NCBI GenBank assembly: GCA_973895155.1
Contig: OZ316897.1
Coordinates: forward strand, 5,287,976-5,351,975
Length of the DNA stretch: 64,000 nt
Source of the DNA: Marsupella aquatica
Taxonomy: Eukaryota; Plantae; Marchantiophyta
Direction: 5' to 3'
Each line of letters starts with the position of its first letter. Within the stretch, counting starts at the first letter, position 1. The translations under genes and the position numbers were made by a program. Below the pieces are notes generated by a model. It did not search any database, had not been told where the DNA came from, and saw nothing but the letters and a program-made list of their open reading frames with translations. Of this stretch, positions 3,361-50,000 are shown piece by piece.

Positions 3361-3367
3361 TTTTATA
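3361..3367 (-). promoter_or_regulatory. TATA box upstream of the family II ORF
   Basis: GGGTATAAAA lies ~100 nt upstream of the ORF start and is conserved in copy c at 28342-28348. Confidence 0.5.
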
Positions 3368-19766: not shown

Positions 19767-19780
19767 TTAATAAGATCATC

Positions 19781-22265
19781 ATGACTTCACCCACAGGAAG
19801 TGATGAAGACCTTGCGGTGCGCGACGGCCTCCCAAGAGCAGTACCAGCTCTACTTCCAACACTTCACCAAGATTTGATGGCACTTGCCGAGGCATTGGAA
19901 GCAATGCATCTAGGACGACTCCTTCTTATGCCTTGGAACACTATTTCCCCTACGTACTTGCAAGGATTTCAGGACCGTTCCCCACAGCTTGAAGGTATGG
20001 AGGGTACAATAAGGGCCAAACCAGAACAATGGGACATCGATTTATTTACCCGAGCTTTTCATTGTCCTTCAATTGCGATTAATTTGGTATCTGGAAGAGA
20101 CTCGATTTCCAAATCCATGTTTGCAGGGGTTCGACGAAGTAAACACGGTTGGAAGCTACATCAGTGTATTGACTACACATTCCGACTCATTCTTGATTTC
20201 CTCGTTCCTATCCTGCATCCGAATCAACCCCAGATGGTTCCTGTGTCTTTAGCGAATACTCTATACACTTCTTGGAAGAAGATTGCTGAGGTAAATTGGG
20301 CTCTTCTGCTACGAAGGACAGTGCTCTCACAAGTGAAGGAAGTTAAAGCTGGAAAGCTAAATTGCTTACCTGCTTATCTCAGCCAGCTTTACTTCCAGGG
20401 AGATTGCTTACTGCTTGAGGAGAAGATCAAGCGCCGAAGGCTACTTGGTGAACTCCCCTTTGAAGTTCTGGAAGAAAGAGATCTACCTGAAGGTGAAGGC
20501 GAGGAAGAGACACCAATTCCTTCCCCAATAGATCAGCAGCATGGTCCTACTAGTGAAGAAGGGGATCCCGTTCCACCACCAAGCTCACCTCTCCTTCCCG
20601 AACCTGCTGAAGTTATTCCCCCTGTAGTTGCTCCATTGACAGATTGTGTTGTGAGTCCCCAAGCTCCTATCTCCCCAATAGATCCTCTTGATCAAGAAGC
20701 AAGACAGATTTTCTATTACCAAGGTATTGTGGAAGCCTTGACCGAGATTTTATCTTGTGGCCCTGGAGAAGTAGTTACTCTCGTGCGTGACTTGAAGAGA
20801 ATCCCACAGAGCGAAGTTTCTCCTAATATTCCTATCTCTGAACCTCAGGACCTTACACCAATGTACTCACCTACCGAAGGACCTCTAGCTGTTATCCAAA
20901 GCTTGTTACAAGAACCACCTTCTCATGAAGTTGAAGAACAGGTTAATGGTGAGGATATGGAAATCAACATTGTGGGGATTGCAGAAGATCATCAACCAGT
21001 GGCTGATGCTAACCAACAGCAACCCCCGATCCTTTAGCATGCTCCAGAAGAGGTTCAGTATTATTCTGAATTAATTGCAAAGATTACCTCTATGTTAGAG
21101 TGTGATCCAGAGCACATAGTTGAGTGATGGAGGACGTATTACAGAGGGCCACCGTTGTTATAAGTCGAGATCATCACTTGGAGTATTGTGAGAATCTCGT
21201 TGTCAGGCTTGCCCAGATGTTCAACTGCGAACCTACTCAAGTATACGCTGCAGTACACTACCACACCTCTAAGTTTGGTTCTCCCCTTTCCCACTCTTCT
21301 TCTGATCATTCCCCCACCTCACCTTATAGTCCTTCGGACTGCCCTGATCATCATTTTCCTAGTTTTCCAATCCTTACCATCACGCCCACGGATGAAGCTT
21401 CCAGTTACCCTGATTCCCTACCTCCTAGGAAGAATAAGTCCTGCCAAGTCAATCTTATCACTACCATCCATATAGATCCTAAGACCCCCATAGAGAATAT
21501 CAAACTGTTTTCCGAATTTCTTAAAGTAGTAGATCTCAGAACCCCTCCCATCTTAGAATACTGGAATTACTATCACAAGAGGAGAATTGAATGCCTCAGT
21601 CTATATCTTGAAGCTACACTTGAGGGATACCACTCACTTGGAGATAGCGGAAATGGATGAAATCTGGACTGAAGCAGAATATTTCAGGCCCATCCTTGCT
21701 GCCATGATTCTGGTTGGTGACATTGTGTTGGAGAATGGAGATTTAGCTTTAGCTTATTTTGGAAATCTTTCTGCCTACCATCTTGAGTTTATTATTTCAT
21801 TTCTGAAGTAGACCAATAGGAAGAGTCGAGTTGATCCTCGTAACATTCCAGAACACCCTTTCATCAAACAGAAGTTTATCACTCCAGTTACTGAGAAACA
21901 AAGGATCTGGAACAACATCACTTCCCAGCGACTCAAAGATTATACTGGGAAATGGCGCGCTCTTTCTTCTACCATTTATCCACTTCTCGATTTGGTTGGA
22001 GACACTGAAGCATTCATTCAAAAATTTATGCATAACTATCATCCTTCCTACTGTTCCTATGACCTGGTTGGTATTTACATACAAGCTAGCAAGGTCAACA
22101 CCATGTTTACTAGGCCCAGAGCTAAACATGGAACGTCAGTGAAAATCACTTCCTCTCATTCGACATCACTCCAATGATATGGATACTATCCGTGAAGTCA
22201 TTCAGAGTGACACCTTCAGACGAGTACAACAACCAGACCCTAAAGCTCTAATGCAGCAAGATTGA
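19781..22265 (+). pseudogene. Family IV ORF (shared core domain, then Pro/acidic region); open for 418 codons to 21037, then stops and frameshifts
   Basis: ATG at 19781 (MTSPTGS). Core motifs LLLMPW, HGWKLHQC..LDFLVPILHP..P and VNWALL. Coding-like sequence continues past the TAG at 21035; the 3' limit is approximate. Confidence 0.7.
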
Positions 22266-24999
22266 ATTTTTGCAATTAGATTAGATTTGTTTAATTGTTG
22301 AAGTACTCAGGAATGCCTGAAACCTCACTAGTAGATAACCCTTATGTAGTGAAATTCTCAGCATTTTTAGTTTTGTAAAAAGCGTAAGTGCGCAAAGGCG
22401 CAACAGCGCTTCTACTCCAAAGCGCCAAAGCGCAATCGCGCCCCCAACACTTAGAAACTTTTTCCGGAGTTGTGTAATTTTTATCACACAACACTTATCT
22501 TCGATTTATTTGAGGTACTTCGACACCTCATAAAAGTCTGAAATTTTGCCAGCATGTAGCATGTATGTAAATCTTCCAACCTAGGAAAGTTTCACCCTAT
22601 TCTGACTTTTATGTTTAGAAACTAAAATTCAGAAAAAGTTGCTATTTATTAGTTTTACCACAAAAGTGCAAAAACATTTTCACTCCAGTTTACACTAAAG
22701 ATCATTTTTGATTAGTTTTTGATTCTAGGAGCCTTCTAGTGAACCTTAAGTACTCCTTGTAACATATTTTCATACTTTTAAACTTTAGTTTATGACCCTT
22801 AAGATATGAAAGGGCATGTCCTTTCATTATCTCTTTTCCCTGTAGCTCCTGCTAGCCTATATGTAGCAAACTTTGTGACACTTTTGTGTGAGAGGAAATT
22901 ATGTAGCCCTGTGTTGCAGTTTGCAACATGGCAAGTTTCACTTTGTAGAGAGAAACTCTGACTTTTGTCAAGAGTGAATGAATACAAAGGATTTCTTCCC
23001 CCTTCCTTGGCTTGGAATGTTGTGAATTTTGAGCAATGAAGTAAAACATAGTTTCATATCAAAATCTTCTGAATGTATAGAGATAGATTCCATAATGGTG
23101 AAGGCTATACATACTCAAGTTCTTGATGCATGTAGTTTTGGGATTTGACATTGCTTGTGCACGACCTGCAAAGAATGTCATTGACCAATTTTCCATGATT
23201 TAGTTTGTTGATGACGGTGATTGTGATTTGTAACTCGGACAAGTACCGATTGGATGCTGAAGTGATTGGTTGTTAATCCTAACTTAGTAGCTTGGAAGGA
23301 AAGGTTGAGATGTGTAGACGGCACCTTAACAACTATCCCAGTAAAGTATTCCATTCCAGAAATGCCCTTACAAGTCCAATACCTTAAATCATTACAAGTT
23401 AAGTGTTGTTGAGAAGTTACCTTGGTGTTTTTCCAGACTCTCTCATCATACCTCAAGATTTCCTTGTATTTTGTCAATTTCATCCATTTTATTAATTATA
23501 TTTACAATGTCAAGCAGACATTTAAATCTATGCCTTGCTGAGCATTCAAAGTAAAAGGCTTATTTTTGTGTTTTGTTACCTTAGTCAATCATTTGTGTTA
23601 AAGAATTGTAAATCATTCCTTACATGTTCTTCCATGGGAATGAATACCGAGTTTTGGATCTTAAATGTTTATTTATGTCTCTAGTGTGATACTACACCAA
23701 GCATTCTACACCCGTATACGAGACTAATGAACATAACAACTTACAAACATACAATCTTGGTTTACACAAAGAAAATGGCGGGGAAAGACTTTTAATTATG
23801 ACTCCGTCATACGTACATACACGGTTGACTCGACTTCTTTGGGAATAAATAGCCCAATGGCAATGAGGTGTACACTACAATGGAGCCCGGCTTTGCACTC
23901 GCCCGACAAGCTTAGCCGTACCCTCACTCCTTGTACTCTTCTATCCACTAAGGTCGAGACTCCCCGCATATCCACGGATACCCAGTTAAAAACCCAAAGT
24001 CCCCCCCCGTTGCCTCTATCGGGGGTGCACTAAATACTAACTAAGAGCCGTGGCTAGGAGTGGTCACTGCTCAAGTTCTAGCCTATGCTAATCCTAGCTA
24101 AACGCCAGTCCGCTAAATAGCTTGTCATTACCCTAGATGCTATGCTAAGAAAGGTTGTCAGCGCCGCTCTAACTAGTTTCAGCGCTTGTTGGTAGTGTCC
24201 TACTTCCGTGGCTAAACCTATGCTACTCTAAACTATCGACACTGCCTAATGCCTGGCCCGCTTGTTAGATCTGTTTGAGTGGGACTTGGATCGGTTGTCC
24301 CATTGCCTCCTCAGCCGGTCGACGGCTTGATTGAGGATCTGGACCTGGTCCATGAGAGAATTGTTCTCTCTCTTCATCGCGTCCGTTTCCTTCGCGGCCT
24401 CCTGACACGCCTCTTCCAAATGTTGACCGTTGCTTGTCAGCTTGGCCACCAGTTGGTTTTGTTTAGCGGCTTCTTGTTGAAGCCATGCCACCTTCGCTTT
24501 TAGGGCATCCATCTCGGCGGTATCTCGTTGGGCCCAAGCATCGGCCTCCTCTACATCCTTCTGCCAGATTCCAACTTATCCCTTCAAACTGTCAATCTAG
24601 GTCTGGAGTCGTGAGATCTTGACGTCCTTCCCAGCTCCGGCTTGCTCGGCCAAGGTTAACTTGGCCTTGGTATTGGTGACTTGGACAAGGGCCGTCACCA
24701 ATTGAGGACGGAGAAGCTCCAGCTCAGTATCCCAATGTGCCAATTTGCCTAAGAGTCGGTGGTCTCAACCCGGTACCGCTCAATCTTTGTTGTGGCGTCA
24801 ACCTATGCCTATCTCGCTTTCATTGCCGCCACCAGCTCCCTGGTTGAAGAAGTAGGCTACCTTGTGGGCCATGAACTTCCCCATCTCTTGGCTAATTTGA
24901 TGGGAGAATTCTTCCAGCAGCCCGTTCAAATATGTGCCCGGTGCGAAGAGTTCCGGGTTCACCAAGCTGTGCCCACTTGGGGTCGGGCAAGGATAGACC

Positions 25000-27900
25000 T
25001 GTGATGCCTAGCCAGGAATCACTAGGCCAGTTTAAATGATAAAATAAGGAGTAAACCCTGGAAACACATTAGTGTAGTAGCAAAAATATGGAAAATATAA
25101 ACAATTAAGGGTGGCTATGGAACCCGAGCCGAGGCCAGAAGTAAAAACACCGGGGGAGGGAACACAATTAGGGTTAGGGCGTGCTAAGTGCCGGTGGCTA
25201 TGGGTAACTAATGGGAAGGAAGACCAGTCAGGGAGGGGTAAGGATCGATCGCAAGGATCGAATGGCGGCTCATTTGCAAGCACGAACTAAGCAGATGACT
25301 ACGGGAGGCCAACTACTGTCTGTTTCTCAGGCAAGCACTCGGGTGGAAGCAGATACCAACAATCAACTCAAGAAGGGTATGAGCAACGTCAATCAAGCTG
25401 CTCATTTTTGGGGATGCCTGTCAGAATGGGCAACTAAGTACATTGGGACCTACGAGGACAAAGAATCAGAGAGAGCCGCTCGAGAACGGTAGGAGCTTGC
25501 TCGACTGTGGAAGCTGCAGAAGTCTGCCTTCTTAGGAGGAGAACTCATTACGGCTGAATTCTTGTGGACGCCTACTGCCGACGAACTCAACGATCTTCTA
25601 TTTTGTGAGAACAGAATAGTCAGCATCCGAGAGGCCATCAACCGCTGCAATGACATACACTGGGAGTTGAAGGGTAGCACGGAGGGGTGGACAAAGGCAA
25701 CCGTGCTAGGAGAAACATCCAGGGCAGCCGCTATGAAGAGGAAAGGGAACATCAATGAAGAGACCACCCCTGCAAAGAGAACGAGGTCGGCGGCACCAAG
25801 GAAGCCAGCCAAGCAAGGGAGCAGGAGGCAAGAAGAAGCCAAAGAAGAGGAGGTTGACCCCATCAATGCCGTTCCAACAAGGGATGACACCTGGAAAGGC
25901 TGGGCGGCGACCCTCCCCGAGCAAGTGCAATTACACTTTGCACGCAAAGAGGATGCATGCTTTACGGCTATGCAGACTTGGAAGTACCAGGGCTTCATGG
26001 CCGGATCCGGCTTGGAAGCCTTCGTAAAGTTACCATGGCTGAAGCCGGAGGTATCGGATTTAGACTTATTAGAATTCGTGGGATCTTGGGAGCTCAAGAC
26101 CAATTCCACAAGGGTGCATGCTTGGGAAAGAATTCTATCTCACTCCCCGAGTGATTGTCGAAGAGTTTGGCTTGCCGACGGGCAATAAGACCAAAGTAGA
26201 TACCCGGAAGACCTTGCCAGACAAGGAGTTCCGATCATTCCCAGGGCCATCAACAAAGAATGGCTTCTTTCGGAGCACTTGCACCAACCCGCACATAGGA
26301 GAGATAATCGATTTCTTGCGGGTAACCATGCACTGCCACTTGCCGAGGCCAGAGATCGGCAAGGCACAGGTTTACCTGGCGGAGAGGCCAGACCCCAGCC
26401 GGGACTACAATGGATACCTCCTCACCCAATTGAAGAAAATCTTGAAGGAGGAACAACAGGTGATCGGCAAAGGAAGCGTGTGCCGGCTTGGCTATCATAT
26501 GCCGCTGTTGTGCCGGTATGCCCGAAGTCAGATATTCGCCCCGGTACTTCCCTTGCAGGCAAGAGCACCAGAGGAGGTTCCGGAATAGAGGCCGACAACA
26601 GAGAAACCGACCCAGCCCGACAGTCCTACAATTGAGCAGGTGTTTAGGCCGAGGAAGGAGGACTTGCCGATGCAGCAACCAGGCATGCAAAATCTGCTAA
26701 AATTGCTGGAGAAGGAAAGGAGAACGGCAACGGCAACGGCAACGGGACCGATACAGAATACTGCTCCCAAAGTTGGCCTAAGCCAACTTACCAAGGAAAA
26801 CCCCTTTACCGGGGTCAAGGAGAGAAGGAGGTCGGACCACAAGCTGGGAGTCCAAATGTATGTAGGAGCCTCAAGTCCCAAAGCCAAGGAAAAGCAGCCC
26901 GAAGCTCCTGGTCGCGACAGGGAGAAGAAGAGATCAACGTGGAAGTTGGAGGAACCAGGACCCGTGATCTGTGAGGCCGTGTTCACGGCAAAACCAGGAG
27001 AGCAGCGGGGCGAGCTGGTAGTCCAAGCCGTAGAGGAGGCGATAGAAGACTACGAACATGATGACTCCGGCTACGGGTCGGACCATCATGTTCCAAGAGT
27101 AAGGACCTATGGCAGGTTCATCCCCACTCTTCCAAGAGTAGTTCGAGGGGACCCCACCCAACAGAGTAGCCCCGAGTCTCCCCCACCAGATGTCGCTCCC
27201 CCGAGCTTTGATGACATAAAACAGATGGCACAAGAGTTTCAGGAGCGACTCAGGGAGGAAGAGAAGGCAGCCCTGGCTAGGGAGAAAGATTTACCATGGG
27301 GAGAATGGCCAAAACACATCAGGCGGCTTGCAGAAAAATGAAGCAGCCCTCCAGCCACGATAGAAGAAATCCCCAAGGCGGCTTGGGAACAGAGGCCGCA
27401 ATGGTTGATGCCGATGACTTCTACTCACTCCGCCTATGCTTAAGAAAGAGCCATGGAGTACGGGGAGATGTGTGGGAAACTTGCGCTCAACATTTTTGGG
27501 GAGGAGTTGGAGCAGGGACCCTTTTTCCAGAGGGAGATGTTGGAGAAGCGCCGATTAGAAGAAGCGGTGGCTTTGGAGATAAGCAAGAAGGACGAGGTCA
27601 TCCATCGGCTTACGGCAAGGGAAACCGAGGTAGAAGACCTGAAGGCGGCCAAGAAAGCCCAAGATGAGTTGCGGATTAAGCGGCACGAGCTAAACATCAT
27701 GCAGGGGCAATTGGATACCGCGCAGTCTGATAATCAGATTATCAAGGATAAACTGACTCGGACCCAAGGAGAGTTGGCCGATGCAATCAAGGAGAAGGAG
27801 AAGTGGAAGTGAGAGCTAAGAGATGCAGAGGAGGCCCACATAGCAGCCAACAACCGGGCCATGGCGGAGACCCAGAGAAGGGAGAGGGCGTTGAAGGGGG

Positions 27901-28118
27901 AGCTCGAGGATATCCACGGAGCCCTTGAGCAGAAGGAGGCCGAGTTAGGAAAATCCTATCAGGCGATCATTGTGCTACGACAAGAGCTTGCATCCATGAT
28001 GGCCAGCTTCAAGGCCGACCTCCGTGAGAAAGACGACCAGCGCAACCAGACTTATGCCAAGATGAATAAAATGGAGTTTGAGGTCGTAACTGAGCTCGAC
28101 GAGGAGCTAAGAGCAACC
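25000..28118 (+). mobile_element. Family I unit, copy c (5' terminus intact, 3' deleted, ORF disrupted)
   Basis: Starts TGTGATGCCTAG as at 37743 (-). Peptides are nearly identical to the 1210-aa ORF. Homology ends at ..GAGCTAAGAGCAACC (28118), where family II sequence begins. Confidence 0.88.
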
Positions 28119-29809
28119 AGAATTCATGTTCAAACTGGCGGCAGGTCGCCATTCGCACGCTTGGGTTGCGAGCATGTAATGGGCCCCCTTTCCCCCTCCC
28201 TTGGGTCCGTATAACAAACTCCAGGAGGCGGCCACTGACACGAGCTGATCCGGACCGGCGAAGTGGCTGGTACACTATGAGCATGAAAGGCTCGGCCTAT
28301 AAGCAATGAGGAGACGTCAGGCAATCGACGAGCTCTCAGGGTATAAAAGGGGGGCCGATCCTTGGCAGTGCACCAGTTCTTTAGTCCACGCGCCAGCTTT
28401 GACCCCAGCTCTCTCGCTTATCCTTAGTCACCTGCTATCTCCTTTGAATGTTGCACACAATCCTTTCCAATTTGGCCATATGATTTTGGACACAGTTCCT
28501 GTCTATCGGAGGGCACTTGGCCGACTCATTGAAACACGCCAACCCACGCCAATACAAGATCGAACGTGAATACGAGAGAGCCATCCGCCTAGCAGGCCGC
28601 CACCACTATCTCCTTAACTTTGAGTACCCGTCCCAGAGCAAGCTTTACCGACCCAAAGAGGTATCAGGGTACTTCTTTGACGGAGGCAAATACATCAGCT
28701 TCTGGGAGGCATTGCTTCGGCTTCCAGACAAGGTCTTCAATATCCCGGGCACGATTGACTTGCAGTGGCACCACTTTGACCACATCCTCGCTCGGGTCCG
28801 GGCTATCATCAACAACGTGTTCAACACTACCCGGTCGACAGGGCCGTCTACACTTGCTTCAGAAAACCTCCATCGGCACCTGCAGAACTTCATGGCAACT
28901 CTACCATCAATGACCAATGTCGGCCAACCTGTGCCCGTACCCGCACCTACACCTCCTCGGCCTCAACCAAACCGGTCCCCGCCACCGGTCCCATCACCTC
29001 TCCGAGTACGATCCGTGGTGAATGCGATGAATATTAGCTCCAAAGACGAGGAGGCTCACCCTCCTCTGAATTGACGGCCGCGGGGTACGGACAACCCAAC
29101 ATCACTCCAGCAAGCCCGAGGGGATAACACGGTAACTCTAGCGGCCCGACACCAATACTCACGGCAGTCGCGCTACCACCACGTGACCGAGAGGAAGGAG
29201 AGATGTCCCCTTCTTCTAGTCACCCCGGGAATCAGTCTCGGGGTAGGAAGAGGAAGGAACCCGCAACCGTATCCGGGTTGCCGTTGGCCACGGTTGCGGT
29301 AGCCAAGCTGAGCATGCATCGCATGGGGGACAATGTTCACAAGAACATCCTCCACCCCAAGCATGCATGCTATCTGAAGACCCAAGGGTTTGAGCACCTT
29401 GCCTCTCTCCCTTGGAACGGAAGCAGGTACTATGGGTAGGATATGACGGAGTTCATTCAGAACTTTGACGAGGCCCATCAACAAACCCGAGCGCATGGGA
29501 GAGTGATGTGTCTCAATGAGGCACGTTTGAAGATGATTTTTGGCTTACCCGAGGGGATAAATCGAGTAGAGTCGCGGGCTTCTGGGGGCAAGGGAGCTAA
29601 GTACCAATCCTCTAGCTTCCCGGCCGAGGGGGTAGTGGACAATGGGTTCTTAATGAGGATGTGCCTCATCCCGGAGGTAGCAGAACGCCTGAAGTTCCAG
29701 CGGTATGCCCTCCACATGATGGAACCCAGAGGTGAAATATCGGCCGCCCAGGTCATCTAGGTGGAAAACTATCGGCCCAGGAAGTGGGCGTCCTTCTTCA
29801 TCAAGAAGT

Positions 29810-32069
29810 TGTGGAATGGCAAATCAGAGTTATGGAGTAAAACTGGTACAATTTAAGACTTTTTGTCACCACTTGAGAGTTTTTGGAAGCATCTGATCAC
29901 CCCTTAACATATTTCCTTGAAATTTTGTTTTTCATTTATTAATGAAGCCACGAAAGACCCCATAGCAGGGGGACACCGCAAACAACACCAAAAGAACCAG
30001 AAGCAGCCATGCCCCACATAAAGGACAGCCAGTGAAGCAAACTATGTTTGCCAAAAATCGGCGACAAGTGCCAGCAACAAGCCAAGCATGCCATGCGTGA
30101 CCAAAATTCAGAGGCCAATACCTAGCAAGGCGAACTAACCAACTAAACTAAGCTCTCATATGCCTGGGCCAGTAGCCAGAAACCAGGGGCCAATACTGAG
30201 CACGACAGACTAATAGCTATAAAATTATCACAAATGTCCACGCTAACAGTCGTGAGCCAAGGCATCAATAGACTACATCCATGAGGTCCAAAGATGACCT
30301 CAGCCAAACGTGATCCACACCTGACAGCTATTCAACCACACAACTCGCTCTTCATTAATAAGTTCTTTGACACGCATCATTCTGGTGCGACGCCTGCCCA
30401 ATGGCAAGCTCACACCCACCGCAGTAACATGGTCAGTTGCTTTCGATAGTATAAATCGAAGATCAAATTTCCTGCAGCCATTTGCCTGAAACTCATGCAC
30501 ATTCCGTCCTAACCATAATGACCAGAGGATCTGGTAAAAGATGAAAAGATTAGCAACTGTGTTGTGTTCTCTGCCAACTGTCAGATCCAACATGGATAGT
30601 AGCCTACTCGAGTAATCAGGAAAGGTGTCGTGGAAGCACCGAGCACCTAGGGCCCAGCATTTGTGTGCATGCTCACACTGAGCAAAGAGGTGGGGGATGG
30701 TTTCAGTGACACCGTGACACAGCTTGCAAAATCCATCTCCCTTGCCTATGCGAACCGCTCGGACTCCCGTAAATAATCTTGAGGCCAGGACTCTCCAGAC
30801 AAAAATTTTAGCCCGTGAGGATAGGTCAGACCTCCACAGTCCAGTCCAGGCCTCCTTCCATTCCTCAACTGATTTTGTGCTGCCCCAAGTGCGGTTCAAG
30901 CTACGAAAATCCTCTACAATAGGGCGAAGGATAGAGTAGGCCCTCCTGTTGGTGAGTCTAAAAGCATTCATCAGGGCCAGACCCCTTAACATATTTGAGC
31001 CTCAAAAGGAAGTTTTGGAAAGAAGTGAAGAAGTTGGGATTTCAGACTGAAGAATCGCTTCCTGCTAAATCCGGAGAAAATCGCTTTTAGCTAAATCCGG
31101 AGAAAATCACTTTTAGTGGATTTCGGTTTGAGGATTCTGCACCAACTTTGTCGGATGATTGCGGATCGGTCCGATGTCGTTTTGAGAAGATTTTTGGTGC
31201 ATTGGAAAGCTCTTTCCAAGGGTTGTAAGGAGAATTTTATTTTGGTCCCAAAAGACAAACTTCAGAATAATCCAAACCGATTCTCCAAGGTTTTTTGGCA
31301 TATGTTACTTAAATTGCTTCCTATCTCTTTTCTCACCTCTTGAGCTTTCCCATGAGTTAGATAGAGTAGGATATAGAGGGACATAGTTTAGTTTACCTTT
31401 AGGAATTAGATTTAGAGAGTCTTAGTCTTATTTTACCTTTTAGGACCTTAAGTTTAGATGAGAAAAGGTTTTTAGGCTTCTAAACCTTTTGGCATCTCAA
31501 ACCTTTTGAGGAAGCCTTACAAGTGGACTCCCAAGACCATGATTCATTGTCTTTTCTTCAACATTGATTTTTGACCAAGTGTGGGTTTTTTTCTCATGCC
31601 AAATTGGGCTTAGAAGAAAGAATTTAATGGAGAAGACTTGTACCACTCACATCAATTGAATTTCAAACATTTCATGGATCAAACTTCAGTATTCAAGTTT
31701 TGATGTTTGAATTAGTTGTAGGAAATAGATGTGAATGGATAACTAAGGTGTGCCTTTGAAATCTAGTTGAAATGGGAATTGTACCAACCTTCATGACGTA
31801 AAACTGATCACTACTAAGTGTATAAGGAAGTTAGAGGGAAGAGAAAACCTTTCAATCTATTGAGAAGAAGCCAAACCTAAGGAAATTCATTTCAGCATTT
31901 GTGACATAATAATCATTTCAGGATTATATAAGGAAAAATAGCAAAGAAATTGCTTGAAGATTTTGAACACCACAAAACCTTGGTAAATCGCTTTGTTTAT
32001 TCTTTAAGGGACCGAATCTTGGTATTTAAGGATATAATTACATACATTTTTATTATTCCACTTACCACA
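29810..32069. mobile_element. Solo LTR (non-coding, ~1.2 kb without the nested LINE)
   Basis: TGTGG...CCACA termini; perfect TSD GAAGT at 29805-29809 and 32070-32074. Confidence 0.88.
29915..30980 (-). mobile_element. 5'-truncated LINE (L1-like) with zf-RVT C-terminal ORF2
   Basis: 16-bp TSD ACCCCTTAACATATTT at 29899-29914 and 30981-30996. The ORF has KIFVWR..CKLC...ETIPHLFAQC..W..W..RN. AATAAA and an A-rich tail mark the 3' end. Confidence 0.92.
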
Positions 32070-33083
32070 GAAGTTCCACGAGGAGATGGAGCGGAGAAGA
32101 AAGACTTTGTACCTTGGCGGAAGGGCGTACTTCGCTAGCCACATCGAAATCATCATTGAGTGGTACGCTCGTTTCGACTGCCGCAGGCTCCCGCGTATCA
32201 ATGAGCCCGAGCTGACCCCATCAAAATGGGTGTTCAGAACAGGCCGGGCTTTAGCAGAACAGGCCGGGCTCGGAAAGGGCGTCGAGATCGCACGGCTCCG
32301 AACCAAGATTGACGGTTTGAAGGGACAAGCCGTCAGTTGGCAAAAGGATCTGGAGGAAGCTGACTCTAGGTCTCAGCGGGACACACCGGAGATTGACACC
32401 CTGAAGGCAGAGGTGGCGCGGCTTCAAGGAGAAGCCATGAAACAGGCCCAGTTGGTGGATAAGCTGACGAGCGACACCCAGCAACTGGAGGAGGCATGCC
32501 AGGAGGCCACGGAAGAGGCGGACGCGGCAAAGTGGGAGAATGAATCTCTACTGGACCAGGTCCAGCTACTCAAGCAAGACGTCGACAGACTCAGAAGACA
32601 GCGGGATAGCCGCTCCCACTCAGGCGGCTCTGGCAAGCGTGCCAGGCATTAGCGGCGGAGTAGGATTAAAATAGAGTTAGGAATAGCTAAATCAGGCAAT
32701 AGGGACAAGCACCTACCCTAGTTAAAGCAGCACTACCATGCTGTCCAACCTGCGTAGATTAGGATCTTCTAATAAGACAAGCCGTTTTCCGGCCTAACAG
32801 CCAGCTTAGTTAGGACCTTAGTTAGCAAATCTTTGGGCGCGAGGGCACTCCATTCCTCGGCCCTTAGTATTTAGTGCACCCCTCGGTAGAGGCAAGGGGG
32901 GTTTTTTAGTCTCAGTGTTGGACATCCGCGGTGTGTGCGGGGAGTCCCGACCTCTGGGAGTGAAAGAGTACCAAGGGGAGGGCGTAGGACTAAGCTTGCT
33001 GGGCGAGTGCGGAGCCGGGCTCCGTTGTAGTGTACACCCTCGGCCTTGGACTTGTTCATTCCAGAGCTTTCGGATCAACTAAG

Positions 33084-36000
33084 TGTGGTGCGTCCCATGG
33101 CTCCCTAAACCCAAGAAACCCCCCAGCTCAAGCCGATTCCCGCAGGTTTCGCGCTTGGCGAGGCCGTTTCCGCGGCTTAGCGGCATGGGACGCTGCTAAC
33201 CTTCTACTACTACTATTAACATTTTACACACATATACTGGACAGATCCTTCATCGGGTCATGAGATACGTAGCCGGCCTAATCTAGGCCTTCCCCTGTCT
33301 TCCCCTCCGTCTTGTTAGGTATGTTTGGATTCCGCCGCCCGAATGATCCCCAATAGGCTTGGTTAAGCCGCTAAGACCTCTCTCAGCTCGACACATCCAA
33401 CTCTCACTCCCCTGCTTACTTTCCTTCCTTTTGGTTGATGTGGGCACTCTTCACACAAGTTAATGCGACACACAAATAGCAAAATGACTCATTCTGACTG
33501 AGTCATACCATGCACTTGCCATACAAACAGTACATCTCATACACAAGTTCTGCGAACTAAGCCGTGAGGCCAACTCTATTCAGCTCTTAGGCATGAGGAA
33601 ACATGAATATACACAAGGGTCACTGTATGACTAACCGAGAGCTTCTCGTACTACTTGATCCCAGCCCGGCTGGTGCAAACTAAAAACTTGCTAAAGAAGA
33701 GGCCCTGAGCTCCCCGCTGCCCAGGTACTTATCCTGGTAGTGGATCCGCCATTCTTTGCATCGTAAGCCTAATCTACCTAACAATAATCTACTTGCCCGA
33801 ATCTACCTATGTACAGCAAGGCAGGAGCACAAGTGTTGCTCCTACCAGTGGGACCGCAATCCCACTAAGCTAAGTGTCAGGGCCGCTCCTGGTTCTGATC
33901 CTAATCCTAAACGTGGAGATCCGCGCCCGCCCTGCCCACTCACGCCTCCTCCCTCCACGTCCGCCCTCCCTAAAAGGAACGGCGCCCTTGCACCGTCACG
34001 ACACCGGTGGTGGATCCTTAATGGACGCCCCCAACGCTTCCTCCTCAGCCACTGCCGTAGGCTCATTCCCTGACAGATTACCTGCCCTTGACTGAGTCAA
34101 TTCTCCCTCGGCCTGACTGGGTCCACCATCGGCGTTGGCATCGGCTTGGGAATCGGTTACGGCCTCAGCCTCGGCTACGGTCTCCCCGGCCTGCTCAAGA
34201 GGCGGATCTGGAATACCGGCCTCATTACTGAGTAGTTTGGCTTGGGCCGCACCACCCCCACCTGTGATGATAGCGGGATCTATTGCCGTATTCATGCCGG
34301 AGGATGGTGCTGGTTCTACCTCTTTGGTCACCACGGCTTGTGGAGTCGGATTACTCCTTGACCCTGAAGGTTTCCGCTTTTTCTTCTTTTCTGGTTCGGC
34401 AGCTGGTCCCTTCCCCTTCCCACTTACTTCCGGCACTGGTGCAGTTGGCGCGGCTTTTTCTTCGGCCAGTACCACTCCTGGTAACTTGGTTGCCCCAATT
34501 GGAGTTGGGCCTGATGAAGACAAGCACTTAAATACTGCGGCTTGTTTCTTCAGCCGCTCCGTTTGGTTGTCGGCCCGCCGCTGGAGGTTCTCCATCTTCC
34601 TCGTGATTTCCTCCAACTCCTCCTGGGTCTCATCCAGGTCCTTGCGTGCCTCCTCTAGTTCCTTCTGGGCTTCCTCCCGTTCTTGTTTCAAGGTAGTCCT
34701 CTCCTCCGGGGTTGCTCTTAGCTCCTTGTCGAGCTCTGCAATGATGACAGACTCCATCTGGTTCATCTTGGCGTAAGTCTGTTTGAGCATCTCATCCTTC
34801 TCCCTTAGGTCGGCCTTGAAGCTGGCCGTCAGGGACGCAAGCTCCTGCTGCAGCGCCATAATCCCTTGATAGGATTTCCCTAACTCGGCCTCCTTCTGCT
34901 CAAGGGCTCCGCGGATTTTCTCGAGCTCCCCCTTCAACGCCCATTCCTTTCTTTGGGTCTCCACCATGGCCCGGCTGTTGGCTGTTATGTGGGCCTCCTC
35001 TGTATTCTTCAGCTCTTGCTTCCACTTCTCCCTCTCTTTGATCGTGTCGGCCAACTCTCCCTGCGTCTGAGTCAGTTTATCCTTGATATTCTGATTATCA
35101 GCCTGCGCGGTGTCCAACTGCCCCTGCATGATGTTCAGCTCATGTCGTTTAATCCGCAGTTCATCTTGGGCTTTCTTGGCCGCCCTTAGATCTTCAATCT
35201 CGGCTTCCATCCTCCTAAGCCGCCGAATGACCTCGTCCTTCTTGCTTCTCTCTAAAGCCACCGCTTCTTCTAATTGGTGCTTCTCCAACTGCTCCCTATG
35301 GAAAAAGGGTCCTACCTCCAACTCCTCTCCAAAGATGCCGAGCGCAAGTTCCCCACACATCTCACCATACTCCATGGCTCTATTCTTAGCGTAGGTGGAG
35401 TAAGTAGAAGTAATCGGCATCGCCCATCGCGGCCTCTGCTCCCAAGCCGTCTTGCGGATCTCTTCAATCGTGGCTAGAGGTTTGCTTCCTTTTTTGGCTA
35501 GCCGCCTGATGTCCTCCGGCCAATCTCCTCCTGGTAAATCCTTTTCCCTAGCCAGGGCTGCCTCCTCTTCCTGCTTGATTCGCTCCTGAAATTCCTGCAC
35601 TGTCTGTTTTATGCCGTCGAAGCTCGGGGGAGCAACATCTGGTGGGGGAGACTCAGGGCTACTCTGCTGGTTGGGGTCCCCTCGCACTACCCTTGGAAGT
35701 GTGGGGACAAACCGGCCACAGGTCCTTACTCCTGGGACGTGATGGTCCGACCCATAGCCGGAATTATCATGGCTGCAGTCCTCCACTGCCTCCTCTACTT
35801 CTTGGCCGTCCGGCTTCTCCCTCTCCTCTTCGGTAGGAGCTTCAGGCAATTCTGCCTCAGATTCGGAGCTTGAGATTCCCACATACATTCGAACACCTGG
35901 CTTGGATTCAGGCCTGATTCTCTCCTTGTCTCCAGCAAAGGGGTTTTCTCTTGTGAGCCGGTGTAGGCCTACCTCTGTAGTAGTGTCCTGTATTGTTGCC

Positions 36001-37743
36001 GTTGCCGTTGTTGTTGCCGATGCCGATTTCTTTTCTTTCTCCAGTAGTTTCAGCAGACTCTGCATGCCTGGTTGCTGCATCGGCAAGTCCTCCTTCCTGG
36101 GCCTAAACACCTGCTCGATCGTAGGGCTAACAGGTGGTTGAGGCTTCTTAGCCAACGGCCTCGGCGTTGGAGCTTCCTCGGGTGCCCTTACCTGCAGGGG
36201 AAGTACCGGGGCAAAAGTCTGACCTCTGGCATACCGGCACAACAGCGGCATGTGATAGCCAAGCCGCGACACGCTCCCCATGCCGATTACCTGCTGCTCC
36301 TCCTTTAAGATCTTCTTCAATTGGTTGAGGAGGTACCCGTTGTAGTCCCGGCTTGGGTCTGGCCTTTCTGCCAGATAGACCTGTGCCTTGCCGATCTCTG
36401 CCCTCGGCAAGTTACAATGCATGGTCACCCGCAAGAAGTCGATCATCTCTCCTATGTGCGGGTTGGTGCAGGTGTTCCGGAAGAAGCCATTCTTCGTTGA
36501 TGGCCCGGGGAACGACCGGAACTCCTTGTCAGGCAAGGTCTTCCTGGTATCAACTTTGGTCTTATTGCCTATCGGCAAGCCAAACACTTCGGCAATTACC
36601 TTGGGAGTAAGATAGAAATCCTTCCCATATATCCTCGTGCAATTGGTCTCGGGTTCCCATGACCCCACGAATTCTAATAGGTCTGACTCCGGTACCTCCG
36701 GCTTCAGCCATGGTAATCTTACAAAGGCCTCTAAGCCGGATCCGGCCATGAAGTCTTGGTACTTCTTGGTCTGCATGGCCGTGAAGCATGCATCCTCCTC
36801 CCGTGCAAAATGTAGTTGCACCTCCACCGGTAGGGTTGCCGCCCAGCCCTTCCAGGTGTCATCCCTGGTTGGAATGGCCTTGATGGGATCGACCTCCTCC
36901 TCTTCGGCTTCTCCCTGCCTCCTGCTCTGCTGCTCGGCTGGCTTCTTTGGTGCCGCCGACCTCGTTCTTTTTGCCGGGGTGGCTTCATCGTTGACGGCTC
37001 CCTTCCTCTTCATCTCTGCTGCCGTGGAGGTTTCTCCTAGCACCGTTGCCTGGGTCCACCTTTCCGTGCTACCCTTTAATTCCCAGTGTATGTCGTTGCA
37101 GTTCTTGATGGCCTCTCGGATGCCGACGATGCTGTCTTTGCAAAACAGAAGATCATCGAGTTGATTGGAAGTAGGCGTCCACACGAACTCGTCCTTGATG
37201 AGTTCGCCTCCTAAGAAAGCCGTCTTCTGCAGCTCCCACAATCGAGCGAGCTCCTGCCGTTCTCGAGCTACCCTTTCTGATTCCTCGTCCTCATAAGTCT
37301 TGATGTACTCAGTTGCCCGTTCGAACAGGCATCCCCAGAAATGTGCCGCTTGATTGACGTTGCTCATACCCTCCTTAGGTCGATCGTCGGTATCTACTCT
37401 CTCCCCGAGTGCTTGCCTAAGCAGCTGACAGTAGTTGGCCTCCCGTAGTCGTCTGCCTAGTTCGTGCTCGCAAATGAGCCACCATCTCCTGCAAGCGCTC
37501 CTTACCCCTCTCCTCTGCCGGTCCTTCTTCCCGTTGATCCTTCCTAGCCGCCGACGCTTAACGCGCCCTAACCCTAATCGAGTTTTCACCCTCAGCATCC
37601 TTACCTCCGGCCTCGGCCCGGGTTCCATGGTTGCCCCTAATGGTTTATATTTTCCTTGTTTTGTCCCTATACTAAGGTGTTCCTAGGGTGCCTTCCTGCT
37701 TTACCTACTTAACTGGCCGAGTGATTCCTGTCTAGGCATCACA
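33084..37743 (-). mobile_element. Family I TGT..ACA ORF-bearing unit, complete (4660 bp)
   Basis: Termini TGTGATGC...GCACCACA (7/8 inverted match). Perfect TSD CTAAG at 33079-33083 and 37744-37748. Removing it rejoins the family II 3' region. Confidence 0.93.
33996..37628 (-). CDS. Intact family I protein (1210 aa, or 1123 aa from M88 at 37367): N-domain, Athila-ORF/Transposase_32-like core, long coiled coil, basic NLS-like patch
   Basis: Uninterrupted 3.6-kb ORF containing FVRLPW..LLEFVGSW..IYGKDFYLTPKVIAEVFGLP, a heptad-rich region and PEKKKKRKP. Two homologous decayed copies lie in the window. Confidence 0.85.
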   Translation of the reverse strand: MEPGPRPEVRMLRVKTRLGLGRVKRRRLGRINGKKDRQRRGVRSACRRWWLICEHELGRRLREANYCQLLRQALGERVDTDDRPKEGMSNVNQAAHFWGCLFERATEYIKTYEDEESERVARERQELARLWELQKTAFLGGELIKDEFVWTPTSNQLDDLLFCKDSIVGIREAIKNCNDIHWELKGSTERWTQATVLGETSTAAEMKRKGAVNDEATPAKRTRSAAPKKPAEQQSRRQGEAEEEEVDPIKAIPTRDDTWKGWAATLPVEVQLHFAREEDACFTAMQTKKYQDFMAGSGLEAFVRLPWLKPEVPESDLLEFVGSWEPETNCTRIYGKDFYLTPKVIAEVFGLPIGNKTKVDTRKTLPDKEFRSFPGPSTKNGFFRNTCTNPHIGEMIDFLRVTMHCNLPRAEIGKAQVYLAERPDPSRDYNGYLLNQLKKILKEEQQVIGMGSVSRLGYHMPLLCRYARGQTFAPVLPLQVRAPEEAPTPRPLAKKPQPPVSPTIEQVFRPRKEDLPMQQPGMQSLLKLLEKEKKSASATTTATATIQDTTTEVGLHRLTRENPFAGDKERIRPESKPGVRMYVGISSSESEAELPEAPTEEEREKPDGQEVEEAVEDCSHDNSGYGSDHHVPGVRTCGRFVPTLPRVVRGDPNQQSSPESPPPDVAPPSFDGIKQTVQEFQERIKQEEEAALAREKDLPGGDWPEDIRRLAKKGSKPLATIEEIRKTAWEQRPRWAMPITSTYSTYAKNRAMEYGEMCGELALGIFGEELEVGPFFHREQLEKHQLEEAVALERSKKDEVIRRLRRMEAEIEDLRAAKKAQDELRIKRHELNIMQGQLDTAQADNQNIKDKLTQTQGELADTIKEREKWKQELKNTEEAHITANSRAMVETQRKEWALKGELEKIRGALEQKEAELGKSYQGIMALQQELASLTASFKADLREKDEMLKQTYAKMNQMESVIIAELDKELRATPEERTTLKQEREEAQKELEEARKDLDETQEELEEITRKMENLQRRADNQTERLKKQAAVFKCLSSSGPTPIGATKLPGVVLAEEKAAPTAPVPEVSGKGKGPAAEPEKKKKRKPSGSRSNPTPQAVVTKEVEPAPSSGMNTAIDPAIITGGGGAAQAKLLSNEAGIPDPPLEQAGETVAEAEAVTDSQADANADGGPSQAEGELTQSRAGNLSGNEPTAVAEEEALGASIKDPPPVS

Positions 37744-38215
37744 CTAAGTGTACGCATATGTCTCCTATGTAGTAAAATCCTTTCCCAATATTTCCTTCGT
37801 GTAAATCGAGATTGTATGCTTGTGCGTATGTATATGTGTGAATCTTGTGTATAGGTGCCAACGCTTGGCCGAATGGACTACCCAAGTCGTGCACGGGGTG
37901 CAGCTTGCAGGTAAGCGGTTGCGAGCCCGGGTTGAGTACCCATATCATCGAATCCGGATCAAAGGCGGACAACACAAAGGCTTGGAAGCCTGTAAGCCGG
38001 GGTCGATCCTGCTATCGACTGAGGTATGTTCCGGCAGCGGAACACAAACCATACCTAGGAGGTGTTTGTATATGACAATAGGCGCACTTAGCGCTAGTTT
38101 ACGTGAGTTAGGTGCAGTCCGTGCCTCCCTCCCTGCCCGAACCTTCATTTTGACGAAGGATGTGCCTGTCTAAGCCAAAGCCCGGGTTAAGGCCTAGGCT
38201 GACGACGTGACAACA

Positions 38216-40490
38216 TACCCCCGGGCTAGGCCTAGGTCCATCTGGTGGACAACACCGAGTGTTTGTCAAGCTCTGGGGCACAGGTTAGTCCTTAGCTAGA
38301 GCAACGTCCCCAAAAGTGAGCTAGGGCAACGCCAGGTCCAGATCCAACGATGCGGACTAACACTAGCCCCACACCGGCTCTAGTCCTATCCAACCAACCA
38401 ACCAACACCCAGTCCCAGAGGGCCTCAAACTACCGTCAACCAAACCTGCTGTAGGTAAACCGCGTCCCCGAGGTAGTCTGGACCGGTACCAAGAACCCTT
38501 TGCACGCGAATTATCTCAAGGAGCATCAATTGGAGCAATTTTCTCAACTAAACTGGAGGCCCACCGCCTTCGGACCAAGGGAGATATACGAGTTCATCTC
38601 CAATTTTGATATTGACATGCCTACCACCAAGGTATCAAGGCAAGTCTTGTCACTTACGGAGCACTGATTGGCCCAGATCTTTCGTCTACCAACTGGGCCG
38701 GTGCTGATCAAACTCCGGATCCGGGATAAGGAGTACACGCCAAGTACTTCAAACCAGAAGGCTCTTGATGGACAACGGGTACAAACAGGGCTCATGTACC
38801 AATCTAACCTGTATGGAGCGGCTAAACTTCATACAGACTACCCTGCACATGATCAAACCCCCGTCTGAGATTTCCCTTTGTACGATTGTGCAGGTGGAGC
38901 AATAGAAGCGGTGAAACTAGGCCCAATTCTTTAGCCACCGGTTTTTGGGAGAGCTCAAATGGGCATGCCTATCGGGAGAAGGATGTACTTGGGGAGTCAC
39001 ATTGCAATCATCCTAGACTGGTACAAACAGTGGCGTGAGACCAGAGGAAAGAATATGGCCACCTTGGCTCCAAGCAATGCCGCCACCACCCCCGGACATA
39101 CCGGCCTGAGCGCCCCGACTACTGCGGCTTGGGTAACCCCCAATCCCGTCATTCCTCAAACTACCCCTCCACCCTCCACTCTGTTAGGCATCATTATGAA
39201 TAATGGGCCTCCCTCGCCATTGAACCCCCACTGCCCTCAACGCAGCCACCTCCAATTCCACCACCACCTGAGGAACCCATTCCTTCCCCAGTGCAGACTC
39301 CAAAGGAGGTCATCGCTCCGACCGTGGACATACCCTTACCCAAGAGAATGGAGGATTACAGAGTAGTTATGGGGACCTTGACCCACGACCTAATCCAAAA
39401 GTTTAGCCAGGATCTATTGGGGGAACTAGCAACATACATTGGGCAACAGGTCGCCTAGTACTTCCAACTGGCCTTCTTCATGTTAGATCACCAACTGCGG
39501 ATTGTAATCCGCATGGAGGATGAACTCATGGCCAAGGGGAATGAGATCGGGGACCTCCAGATGACAATGGAGTGACTGGGGAAGCGGCCATCGCTCGCAG
39601 GGAGGAGTTAGTCCGTATCACCCAACAACTAAACGGACTAAACCAAGAGTTGCTTAAGGCTCGGGCTGACATCACGGGACTCAAATACACTGTACTCCAG
39701 CTTCAAATGGAGTCCTCGGCTCGGGTTGATAGCCTGACCAACCTAAATAACCAGTTTGTTCAGGCTGCCTAGCAGGTCAGTGCTATCACCGCCAATCGGG
39801 ATAAGCTGTTAGCCCAAAACCAGGCCAACCTTCAAACAATCGGCCAGCTCAACTTGGAGGTGGCCCGACTCTAGGCGGAGGTTGACAATGTCTCCAATGA
39901 AGCGGAGGAGGCGGTGCCGGATAACAAGGTCTTACAGGAGCGGATTACCCTATTGATAAGCCAGCGGAGCAAGGCGGGAAACGCCTCTGATCAAGGCGGC
40001 TTGAGGCACCAACCTGACAAGGGGACAAACCCTGGACCAATGGCGTGACGCGTGGGAGGGTGGTTAGCACTGGGGGCAATCAGGCGGCTGCGCAGTGCAA
40101 TCGGTGAGCCAGGGTTTCTTTTGGGGTTAACCGTAATGGTAGAGTAGCTGTCGTTAGGCACCAATTAGCGATGTGGTAGCAAGATTAGGACAAGTTAGTT
40201 AGCATCATCCAACGTAGGATAGGCGGCAATCAACGGGCTAGAACAATTGGCAAAAGGACTTAGGTGTTAGCGCCGCAGTCAGTAACCCTTGCCACTGACT
40301 ATCAACAGGACAATCGGCAAGCGGGTCAACCGCGTCAATAAGTAGTTAGGTAGGTAGGTCGTGGCCGAGGGAGGTGGCATCTCCCCCGCCCATCAGAAAA
40401 TAGTATTTAGGTTCTCCCTTCCACTAGTGAAGGGGAGAGGCTAGTGCCGTATTTCAATTAGGAAAAGAATGGCGCACGGGGAGTCCCAGC
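38216..40490 (+). mobile_element. Family III unit, copy b (heavily decayed, both ends missing)
   Basis: Colinear with 48141-50391 (YLGSHIAIIL.WYK, coiled coil, 3' CACGGGGAGTCCC). Confidence 0.82.
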
Positions 40491-47097: not shown

Positions 47098-50000
47098 TGT
47101 GACACGGGTAACATGTCACTTAACCGAACCCAGGTCATAGATTAGGTATTATACGGATGTTAGGACCGTAGCCGTAGCGTAGAATAGCACGTATAGCCGT
47201 CTGTTGCCATTATGAATAGATTAGGAGTAGGTTAAGATGACCAAATGATTACGAGTTCAAGAAGAGGATTATTACGCGCGACCGAGGTACGGTGGCGGCA
47301 GCGGAGTAAAAATCAGTTAGAAGAATCATGCTTGGACCGAGGTGCCGACTTCAACTCATTATCAATGACCCAAACGGCCTGGCCTTCTCACGCTCGGGCT
47401 CATCCTGGCACCCCCATAAGAGAGGAGCCGATGGCGCTGCGGGCCATTTGCTCATTTCCACCTTTTTGGAATTTGTAGACGTTGCCATCCACTCGCCTTT
47501 CTGATCGAATCAAGTCGACCTTTACAAGGAGATTATCGAGGGATAAGAGCGGAATGTGGCAAGATTTAGTCAAGATGAGAGAGGCCTCCACGAGAAAAAG
47601 GACCAACCGGGTGGGAACGTGGACTCAACGAACCGGACTATGAGGTTAGTATGACCCTTACAGCCTTGGGATTCTGGACCTTGTTTGGCAAGGTAGGTGC
47701 TAAGTTCTCCAAGACTTACTGGTACTCTTGTCCCGAGAAAGCCGCTTACGAACGAAGATACGCGAAGCTGGTGACCAAGGTAGCACTGGTTAATTGCGAA
47801 AGGACAGCCATCACCAGGGATTCCAGCTACAATGAGCTGCGAGACTACATCACCAAACTATATCTCAGCGAGGAAGGGCTTAGATCGGTAGCAGAGGCGA
47901 TTCTTGAAGTCCCAACGAAGTTCTTTAAGCTGAAGGGCAGCCAGCGGCTTACTCAAGCGGAGTTTGACAAGATTCCGGGGTACCTAGACCAGCAGATCGC
48001 AGCCGAAAAGCGTCAAGAAGACATCAGCAGACAACGGGAAGCGGCGCGTAATCTTATGTTCCTCGGGGAAAGCTCCAACGCCTTCAACTAGGATATGGCT
48101 ACCCTGATACCACTAGTGCCTCAGCCGATGACCATCGGCGTACCGCCGAACCGGTCCCAAGTCCGTCCAGTGATCAACATAGAGTGTTCTTCAGGTTCCG
48201 AGCGAGCTAGTCCGCAACTTGAACAACGTTCTCGTAAGCGGCCAAGGACGACGACGGCCCCCAAATCAACAACGCGAACCAACGCCACGCCTGCACCTAC
48301 CCCGGCAAACCCCCCGGCCAACCAGAACCGACGGCCCCCGGATAACCCGAAATCCAACTTATTACAGGTAATCCGCATCCCCGAAGTAGTCTGGATTGCG
48401 ATCAAGAAACTCGAACACGTGGACTATCTCAAGGAGCATCAGTTGGAGCAGTTCGCTTACTTGCTATGGAGGCCGTGCGCCACCGGGCCAAAGGAGATTT
48501 GTGAGTTCATCTCCAAGTTCGACACTAACGCATCGACCACCAAGGTTTTGGGGCAGGCCTTATCACTCACGGAGCATCGGTTAACGCAAATCTTCTGCCT
48601 GCCAACCGGGCCGGTGCCGGTTGAACTTCGAATTCGGGATAAGGAGTATACAGTGCGGCACTTCAAACCCGAGGGTAAGACGGACAACGGATACAAGCAG
48701 GGGTCGTGCACCAACTTAATCTGCATGGAGCGGCTTAACTTCATACGGACTACCCTACACATGATTGAGCCACGATCCGAGATTTCCCTCTGCACGATCG
48801 TGCAGGTGAAACAGTACAAACGGCGGAACTGGGCCCAATTCTTCTACCGAAGATTCTCGAGGGAGCTGAAGCGGGCTCAGGGTGGTATGGCTATTGGGGG
48901 GAAGACTTACTTGGGAAGCCATATCGCCATTATCCTCGCCTGGTACAAGGCACGGCGGGAGGCCAGAGGAAAGAATATGGCCACCTCAGCCCCAACTAAT
49001 GTCACCCCCGCCCCAGAGGAGGCAACCCCGAGCGCGCAAACTACCGTCCCTCGGGCAAACCCCGAGCCGGAAGCCCCGACTAATACTCCGCCACCTCCTC
49101 CTATGGAAATTCTGCCGCCCCCTTCCATCGAGCCTCCGCTACCCGCAATACAACCACCCCCAATCCCTCCACCACCTGAAGAAACCTTCCCCTCCCCAGC
49201 GCAGACTACGGAGGAGCTCATTGCCCCGCCCGAGGAACCACCGGTACCCGAGAGGATGGAGGACTACCAAGTAGCCCCGGGGACCATGGCCTACGACCTG
49301 GTCCAAAAGTTTAGCCAAACTATGTCTAGGGAGCTGGCGACGTACATCGGACAACAAGTCTCGGCGTACTTTCAACCAGCCTTCTTCATGTTAGAGCACC
49401 AACCACGGATCGTAAGCCGCTTGGAAGAAGAACTCATGGCGAAGGGGAATGAGATTGGGCGCCTCCAGATGCTGGTAGAGCACCTCGAAGAGGAGGCCAC
49501 TACCCGCCGTGAGGAGTTAGTCTGCACCGTCGAACAGAGGGACGGACTAACCCAGGAGTTAAGCGGAGCGCAAGCAGATCTCAAGAAGCTGGATGACACC
49601 GTGCTTCAATTATGCTCAGCATCTTCAGCTCGGGTTACCAGCCTGACCGACCTCAACAAACAATTCCTGCAGGCAGCGTAGCAGGTGGCGAGTCTCTCTG
49701 CCGAACGAGACAAATTGCTGGCGCAGGACCAGATCCATCGCGACTCCATTAACCAGCTCAACCTGGAGGTAGCGCGGCTCCAGACAGAGGCAGATGAAGC
49801 TGAAAATGAGGCGGAGGAGGCGGTGCGGGACAACAAGGCCTTGCAGGACCGCGTTACCCTGCTCGTCCTCCAGCGGGGAAAACCTGGGCCCACCTCTGAT
49901 CAAGGCGGCTCGAGGTCTCGCCCCGACAAGGGGACCAGCCCTGGTCCAACCACAGCACACACGTAAGGGGTAGTTAGCGAAGGGTGGAAGCAGGCGCCGC

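Follow-up and report, generated by a model that had tools for sequence, protein, structure and literature searches.

Gene-bearing units in the window

The 64,000 nucleotides (nt) of the liverwort Marsupella aquatica analysed here (contig OZ316897.1, positions 5,287,976 to 5,351,975; hereafter the window) consist to ~50% of units that begin with TG, end with CA and carry a single gene. An earlier note, made from the letters alone, had listed 11 such copies in four families, and we recovered all of them through self-BLAST and tblastn (Table 1; copies are named by family and letter). Its description of TGT..ACA ends, of CTAAG and CCAAG target-site duplications (TSDs) and of short imperfect inverted ends in families I and IV was borne out, the inverted ends matching at 7 of 8 positions in both I_d and the family IV unit. 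All three complete units have TG..CA ends and two of the three have a 5-bp TSD: the TSD claim is correct for 33084-37743 and 19339-23696, but the complete unit at 47098-50865 has none. Solo long terminal repeats (LTRs) lacking a TSD are documented (PMC7251063). For ends that are already fixed, the probability that a random pair of 5-mers matches is 0.0011; a blind scan of the window returned 204 TGT..ACA pairs whose 5-bp match is due to chance. The signature is informative here only because homology fixes the ends, in family I both ends independently.

Some boundaries needed revision. The family II copies are real, with 3' ends at 38212 and 18995 (..CGTGACA) and not at 38215 and 18992, a shift of 3 nt. 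A family III terminus proposed at a TGT at 15446 was not upheld, homology to III_c beginning only at 15561. The list of four families had also overlooked a non-coding TG..CA unit at 29810-32069, inserted in II_c with the TSD GAAGT. It holds a long interspersed nuclear element (LINE) fragment (29912-30994, zf-RVT), apart from which it is ~1.18 kb of non-coding DNA, and read contigs show both empty sites, that of the unit in 3 of 4 runs; this unit is likely an ordinary solo LTR.

The units are extensively nested: I_d lies in II_c, the family IV unit and I_c in II_b, II_a in I_a, II_c in III_b, and I_a in I_b. One open reading frame (ORF) had been thought to fill most of each unit. This describes I_d, where the predicted 1210-codon ORF is present at 33996-37628 on the minus strand and is the only full ORF that is intact; the ORF is interrupted by stops or frameshifts in I_c, II_a, II_c, III_b, III_c and the family IV unit, and 10 of the 11 copies are broken or truncated.

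Inside the complete units we found no long repeat, direct or inverted, that might be a hidden LTR pair or terminal inverted repeats (TIRs), and no unit contains an integrase or transposase. We found no Pfam match to gag or pol in 133 of the 137 stop-free frames of at least 95 amino acids (aa), the other four having been scanned as ORFs; at that length limit, pol remnants split into shorter frames are only partly excluded. The absence of paired LTRs and of gag/pol from the units, as first described, was thus confirmed. Within the 64-kb window no same-family pair surrounds gag-pol, and the five visible 5' flanks and six visible 3' flanks lack a polypurine tract (PPT) or primer-binding site (PBS). 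The termini had been called clear of PBS, PPT and gag-pol; the first two are indeed absent, but the II_b end abuts copia-like pol, as an insertion target. This pol sequence (16489-18994, minus strand), which from its motifs we take to be a decayed copia-like reverse transcriptase (RT)/RNase H remnant, has a short 3' LTR ending at 16489 and in translation gave no Pfam or PDB match; both II_b and about 1.8 kb of other DNA interrupt it. We rejected II_b as the LTR of this remnant, since the junction falls within RT coding sequence.

In public sequencing runs, where summed depth does not equal copy number, family I has 100-1000x the depth of neighbouring bins, and the flanks at its ends vary among contigs; family I is clearly abundant. 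Joints in run X2 link the family I interior (33928, 35680, 36244) to its own terminus at 33084, which suggests that elsewhere in the genome this family has inserted into its own copies. An assembly artefact was rejected, part of the unit being found in 10 studies and at least half of its words in 5 runs, and a host gene family was ruled out by the TSDs and the nesting.

Table 1. Units, protein regions and putative promoter, in window coordinates
Feature	Position	Strand	Description
I_d, family I type copy	33084..37743	-	4660 bp, TGT..ACA, TSD CTAAG; nested in II_c; putative solo LTR
Intact ORF of I_d, 1210 aa	33996..37628	-	N-terminal conserved domain, VANC-like domain, linker, predicted coiled coil, low-complexity tail
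Second conserved domain (FW...Y...G)	36984..37451	-	Common to families I-III and Calypogeia relatives
Shared domain, aa 257-490	36159..36860	-	Model matches VANC21-DNA structure 9lnk_A; dN/dS 0.11 versus I_c
Predicted coiled coil, about aa 780-1030	34539..35291	-	E/K/Q/R-rich, proline-poor
TATAAA, putative promoter	37644..37649	-	95 nt inside I_d 5' end; also in I_c
I_a, family I	3725..7184	+	Divergent; 5'-truncated, 3' end intact
I_b, family I	7185..8030	+	3' fragment, older copy
I_c, family I	25000..28118	+	5' end intact, 3'-truncated, frameshifted; inserted in II_b
II_a, family II	1..3724	-	5' end TGTGACAC at 3724; TATA 358 nt in; continues beyond window edge
II_b, family II	18995..24999	-	3' part, end GGCGTGACA; hosts family IV unit and I_c; sits in copia-like pol remnant
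II_c, family II	28119..38212	+	5' end short by about 145 nt; hosts I_d and the 29810-32069 insert
III_a, family III	15561..16488	+	Internal fragment; copia-like LTR cuts it at 16489
III_b, family III	38213..40490	+	Truncated
III_c, family III	47098..50865	+	Complete, TGT..ACA, no TSD; between halves of SET-like ORF
Family IV unit	19339..23696	+	4358 bp, TGT..ACA, TSD CCAAG, TATA 140 nt in

The unit protein and its relatives

A domain of about 200-230 aa is common to all four families; in family IV it lies in a broken ~800-aa ORF that is collinear with P0013 and has a different C-terminus. Pfam coiled-coil matches in the coiled-coil region are weak only. The ratio dN/dS was 0.23 for the pair I_d/I_c (0.19-0.29; 948 codons), 0.10 for family II and 0.18 for family III, the pair I_d/I_a being saturated; these ratios indicate that the ORF is under purifying selection.

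Using a profile search, we identified 114 relatives of the shared domain. Six of the 30 relatives that we looked up carry a taxon name, and all six are from liverworts (five Calypogeia fissa, one Riccia sorocarpa); in liverwort genomes, such units have probably been labelled 'unnamed proteins' of the host, as in the Calypogeia entries. Three word-indexed protein searches found no relatives, which is weak evidence, and the viral contigs contained no relative of the unit protein. Among 64 of the 114 relatives that were scanned, eight scored for the Pfam family Transposase_32 (PF20167), at 16-32 bits (best E 1.6e-7) against a membership threshold of 45 bits, and none of the four window domains matches any Pfam family, Transposase_32 included. 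By these scores, the relatives are remote kin of Transposase_32 and not members.

A model of the shared domain built from 63 sequences reached a predicted local distance difference test score (pLDDT) of 89.9, an earlier four-sequence model having been unusable (pLDDT 42). Compared with 48,161 chains, it matched the VANC21-DNA structure 9lnk_A at Z 8.4 (root-mean-square deviation 4.1 over 206 residues, 7% identity), the next chain scoring Z 2.1. Foldseek against the PDB and viral models returned nothing at E <=0.001 (best viral row E 0.068), and two profile searches of the PDB returned nothing significant. The protein probably belongs to the VANC/MAIN/Transposase_32 group, whose members are accessory domains of plant transposons; the link to Transposase_32 is independent of the structural match and points to the same group.

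VANC acts sequence-specifically to demethylate the DNA of its own elements (PMC5735166). In the non-coding regions of families I-IV, no 6-mer or 7-mer occurs above shuffled expectation, a comparison that dispersed or degenerate targets would escape. Short TTTGCGC/GGAGC repeats at 19655-19770, before the family IV ORF, and their inverse at 22390-22450 are likewise not above shuffles; they resemble TTTGCGA repeats beside a homolog at locus L005, in a second plant.

That homolog is one of seven family IV-like loci on metagenome contigs from a plant with a higher AT content. There, the CACTA start of a shared unit occurs at three independent sites with unrelated upstream DNA. From about 9170, loci L001-L005 have TTTGCGA subterminal repeats, with an internal TAGTG about 565 nt in, and the unit may be a composite CACTA element that has picked up the gene. 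At least two kinds of element have thus carried the gene, a history it shares with PMD. The contigs from this plant lend no support to an LTR host and leave the 3' end out of view.

Origin of the units

Reverse transcription requires a repeat at both ends of the RNA, and a lone unit lacks one. We favour solo LTRs because the units end as LTRs do, carry a TATA box close to the 5' end and, in one case, have a PPT-like flank, and because they lack the terminal redundancy that independent reverse transcription would need. We consider the solo-LTR architecture itself likely. The fuller reading, to which we incline with less assurance, is that the units are solo LTRs of a probably Ty3/gypsy element whose giant LTR carries an accessory gene for a predicted VANC-like DNA-binding anti-silencing protein; for anti-silencing as the function of the modelled protein, we would put the chances at slightly below even.

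TG..CA ends, TSDs and short inverted ends are integrase signals of LTRs (PMC3601003), and TSDs of 5 bp are found in 93.4% of plant elements (PMC6317226). A lone LTR left by LTR-LTR recombination has the anatomy of these units, and the ratio of solo to complete elements increases with LTR length (PMC7251063, citing Du 2012). The ordinary TG..CA unit at 29810-32069, with its TSD in the same nest, we count in support. The clue to lineage is the end sequence alone, which resembles Retrosat2: the final 9 nt of the gypsy LTR end in rice Retrosat2/RIRE8 are identical to the II_b end GGCGTGACA. On this resemblance, the parent was probably Ty3/gypsy.

TATAWA occurs within the first 400 nt in three of the four families (I, II and IV; 95-360 nt inside the end), with a chance expectation of 0.14 each, and in none of the four 3' trailers scanned; AATAAA is also absent from these four trailers. 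In run X6, which has low depth, the sole contig over 37600-37743 runs 106 nt past the 5' terminus at 37743. On the ORF strand, this flank has a G5 purine tract ending 2 nt before the TG, the place expected of a PPT; 0.12-0.39% of window positions are PPT-like by the same criterion. The flank is not window sequence and has no match in the viral contigs. Overall, one of seven readable 5' flanks (five in the window, X6 and X8) is PPT-like.

A full-length LTR-gag-pol-LTR parent would have been reverse-transcribed and integrated, making the 5-bp TSDs seen at two units, and recombination between its two ~4.5-kb LTRs would then have removed gag-pol, leaving one LTR between the TSDs. With TATA 95-360 nt inside the 5' end, transcription would start before the ORF, which would make the gene the first cistron, located in R or U5; alternatively, a second promoter may lie in U3. 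If the trailer of ~0.9-1.5 kb holds a poly(A) site, the LTR would by itself form a complete transcription unit. The protein is predicted to bind element DNA by its VANC-like fold, to oligomerise by its coiled coil and to counter silencing. Most solo copies would then decay, and 1 of 11 is intact.

Several observations weigh against parts of this account. With regard to the protein, Z 8.4 is borderline, near the level for a possibly common arrangement, at 7% identity; neither Foldseek nor the PDB profile search returned a VANC; no array of repeated short motifs of the kind that VANC targets was seen in families I-III; and the filter used for dN/dS (40% local identity) is able to lower dN. The gene alone is not proof of an LTR host, because its homolog sits in a CACTA-ended unit elsewhere. 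With regard to the ends, the first 600 nt of family III lack TATAWA, and the PPT-like flank is one contig, judged by a criterion that was fixed after the flank had been seen. X6 also assembles unrelated flanks (four contigs at 33084), the X8 flank is not a PPT, and four contigs of X5 are mixed. A PBS was read nowhere, with 0 of 6 in the 3' flanks of the window and unresolved mixtures in the read flanks at 33084. Lastly, we saw no full-length parent, and none of the 11 visible termini touches internal sequence. For Retrosat2, 429 solo and 162 complete elements are reported (PMC3485330). By hand calculation, 0 of 11 has a probability of 0.07 at that ratio of 2.6:1 and of 0.39 at 10:1; therefore, the solo-LTR model needs a high solo ratio.

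The alternative that fares best keeps the solo LTRs and reads the gene differently. An Athila/SIRE-type sense extra ORF would have been absorbed into U3 and read only from the full-length element, for particle assembly or integration targeting, and solo copies would be dead ends. The Transposase_32 similarity of the relatives, the broken or truncated state of 10 of the 11 copies and the position of at least six units within other units all fit, as do the usual location of plant extra ORFs just before the 3' LTR (PMC7264820) and the prediction that Athila-domain and VANC proteins both form coiled-coil pentamers (PMC13547354). However, TATA lies upstream of the ORF and in none of the four 3' trailers scanned, and the sole structural match is to a DNA-bound anti-silencing factor. 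We regard this alternative as rather unlikely.

The earlier note had also left a choice between giant solo LTRs and stand-alone units. One-gene units made by an integrase stand, and of the two options the solo LTR is favoured, stand-alone mobility being without positive evidence. A stand-alone, LTR-only element would be a single unit that copied itself with integrase supplied in trans, via tandem or circular copies or DNA excision. Such an element would explain why 0 of 11 termini touch internal sequence and why the readable flanks in read contigs are mostly mutually unrelated, and it sits well with the family I depth of 100-1000x neighbouring bins (not a copy number) and with a unit that has its own TATA and an ORF under apparent selection. 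The units nevertheless lack both a TIR and a terminal repeat on which strand transfer could take place, the expected end-to-start joint is absent among the joints listed, one flank is PPT-like, and a high solo ratio gives the same picture. A single gene-bearing LTR that moves by a borrowed integrase, its VANC-like protein keeping the family unsilenced, thus seems to us improbable, as does the stand-alone element in general; if it were true, an LTR-only mobile gene would have filled large parts of liverwort genomes.

Ginger/TDD elements have TG..CA ends, a retroviral-like integrase and TIRs of tens of bp. Non-autonomous DNA transposons of this type with a VANC-like passenger, as VANDAL has, would accord with the occurrence of VANC in DNA transposons (PMC5735166, PMC13547354) and with the homolog in a CACTA-started unit at three independent sites in another plant, but the inverted ends here span just 7-8 bp and differ between left and right, the units lack integrase and transposase, and one flank is PPT-like, making such an origin highly improbable.

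Surroundings and known systems

Among the repeats lies an island of host-gene sequence with an intact, intronless receptor-like kinase of 926 aa (10358-13138, minus strand), whose kinase domain is split by a ~500-aa insertion. An intronless 410-aa ORF with an NIF (FCP1-like) phosphatase domain is located at 60820-62052 (minus strand). The region 40500-57500 is CACTA-like, with Tnp2 and DUF4218/DUF4216 pieces at 51489-57441 and a 383-aa ORF at 43448-44599 (minus strand). Halves of a SET-domain-like ORF at 46980-47097 and 50866-51350 are separated by III_c, the right half matching Pfam SET at E 2e-4; the ORF is directly upstream of the CACTA Tnp2, possibly as part of a CACTA element with a SET domain. 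Scans of the window for tRNA and Rfam families gave no match.

Solo LTRs are usually regarded as non-coding scars of element removal. If the solo-LTR reading is true, removal here leaves a full accessory gene with its TATA, and deletion of elements could scatter copies of a chromatin-acting factor. Protein-coding sequence within an LTR is familiar from the animal retroviruses, where mouse mammary tumour virus sag and human immunodeficiency virus nef encode about 200-320 aa in U3; the unit ORFs, in contrast, span about 800-1200 aa and are probably downstream of the main TATA. TRIM, LARD and TR-GAG elements are non-autonomous, lack pol and use enzymes in trans, keeping two LTRs, PBS and PPT. We rejected TRIM/LARD as a description, the complete units being without two LTRs around an internal region.

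Our literature searches, outside whose scope lie Repbase, Dfam and the supplementary tables of REXdb, found no whole gene in a plant or liverwort LTR. Accounts of plant LTR elements place their extra ORFs internally (PMC7264820, PMC6317226; the available part of the latter does not mention Marchantia). The rice Ty3/gypsy elements Retrosat2, RIRE3, RIRE8 and FRetro3 resemble the units in having LTRs of >3 kb, many solo copies, similar ends of 9-10 bp and an extra ORF (PMC3485330); they differ in that their ORF0 is upstream of gag-pol, as far as that source describes it, whereas here the TG and CA ends enclose an entire 3.6-kb ORF. The extra ORFs of Athila, Ogre and Retand (Athila ORF-1, PMD, Transposase_28; PMC6317226, PMC7264820) are similarly fast-evolving accessory ORFs that belong to the plant-transposon domain group and have a coiled coil, in elements with LTRs of up to about 5 kb. 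They are described as internal, while the unit proteins match no Pfam family and the host is a liverwort. I_d provides an intact test case for the role of the extra ORFs of plant retrotransposons.

The unit protein also resembles VANC21 of VANDAL21 and the related MAIN/PMD proteins (PDB 9lnk) in its predicted fold over 206 residues, its coiled coil and its setting in a transposon accessory gene. VANC is structurally related to MAIN and is a predicted coiled-coil oligomer, like the Athila domain (PMC13547354). At 7% identity, the unit protein is nonetheless far from VANC21, which belongs to a group described as dicot-specific and MuDR-borne (PMC5735166, PMC13547354), and families I-III show no tandem target array. 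The host unit, with TG..CA ends, a 5-bp TSD and no transposase, is not a VANDAL/MuDR element. If a VANC-like fold is present in liverwort retroelements and also in a CACTA unit, the VANC/MAIN/Athila group would extend far beyond dicot MuDR, and the proposed origin of VANC through capture of host MAIN would again be open to discussion.

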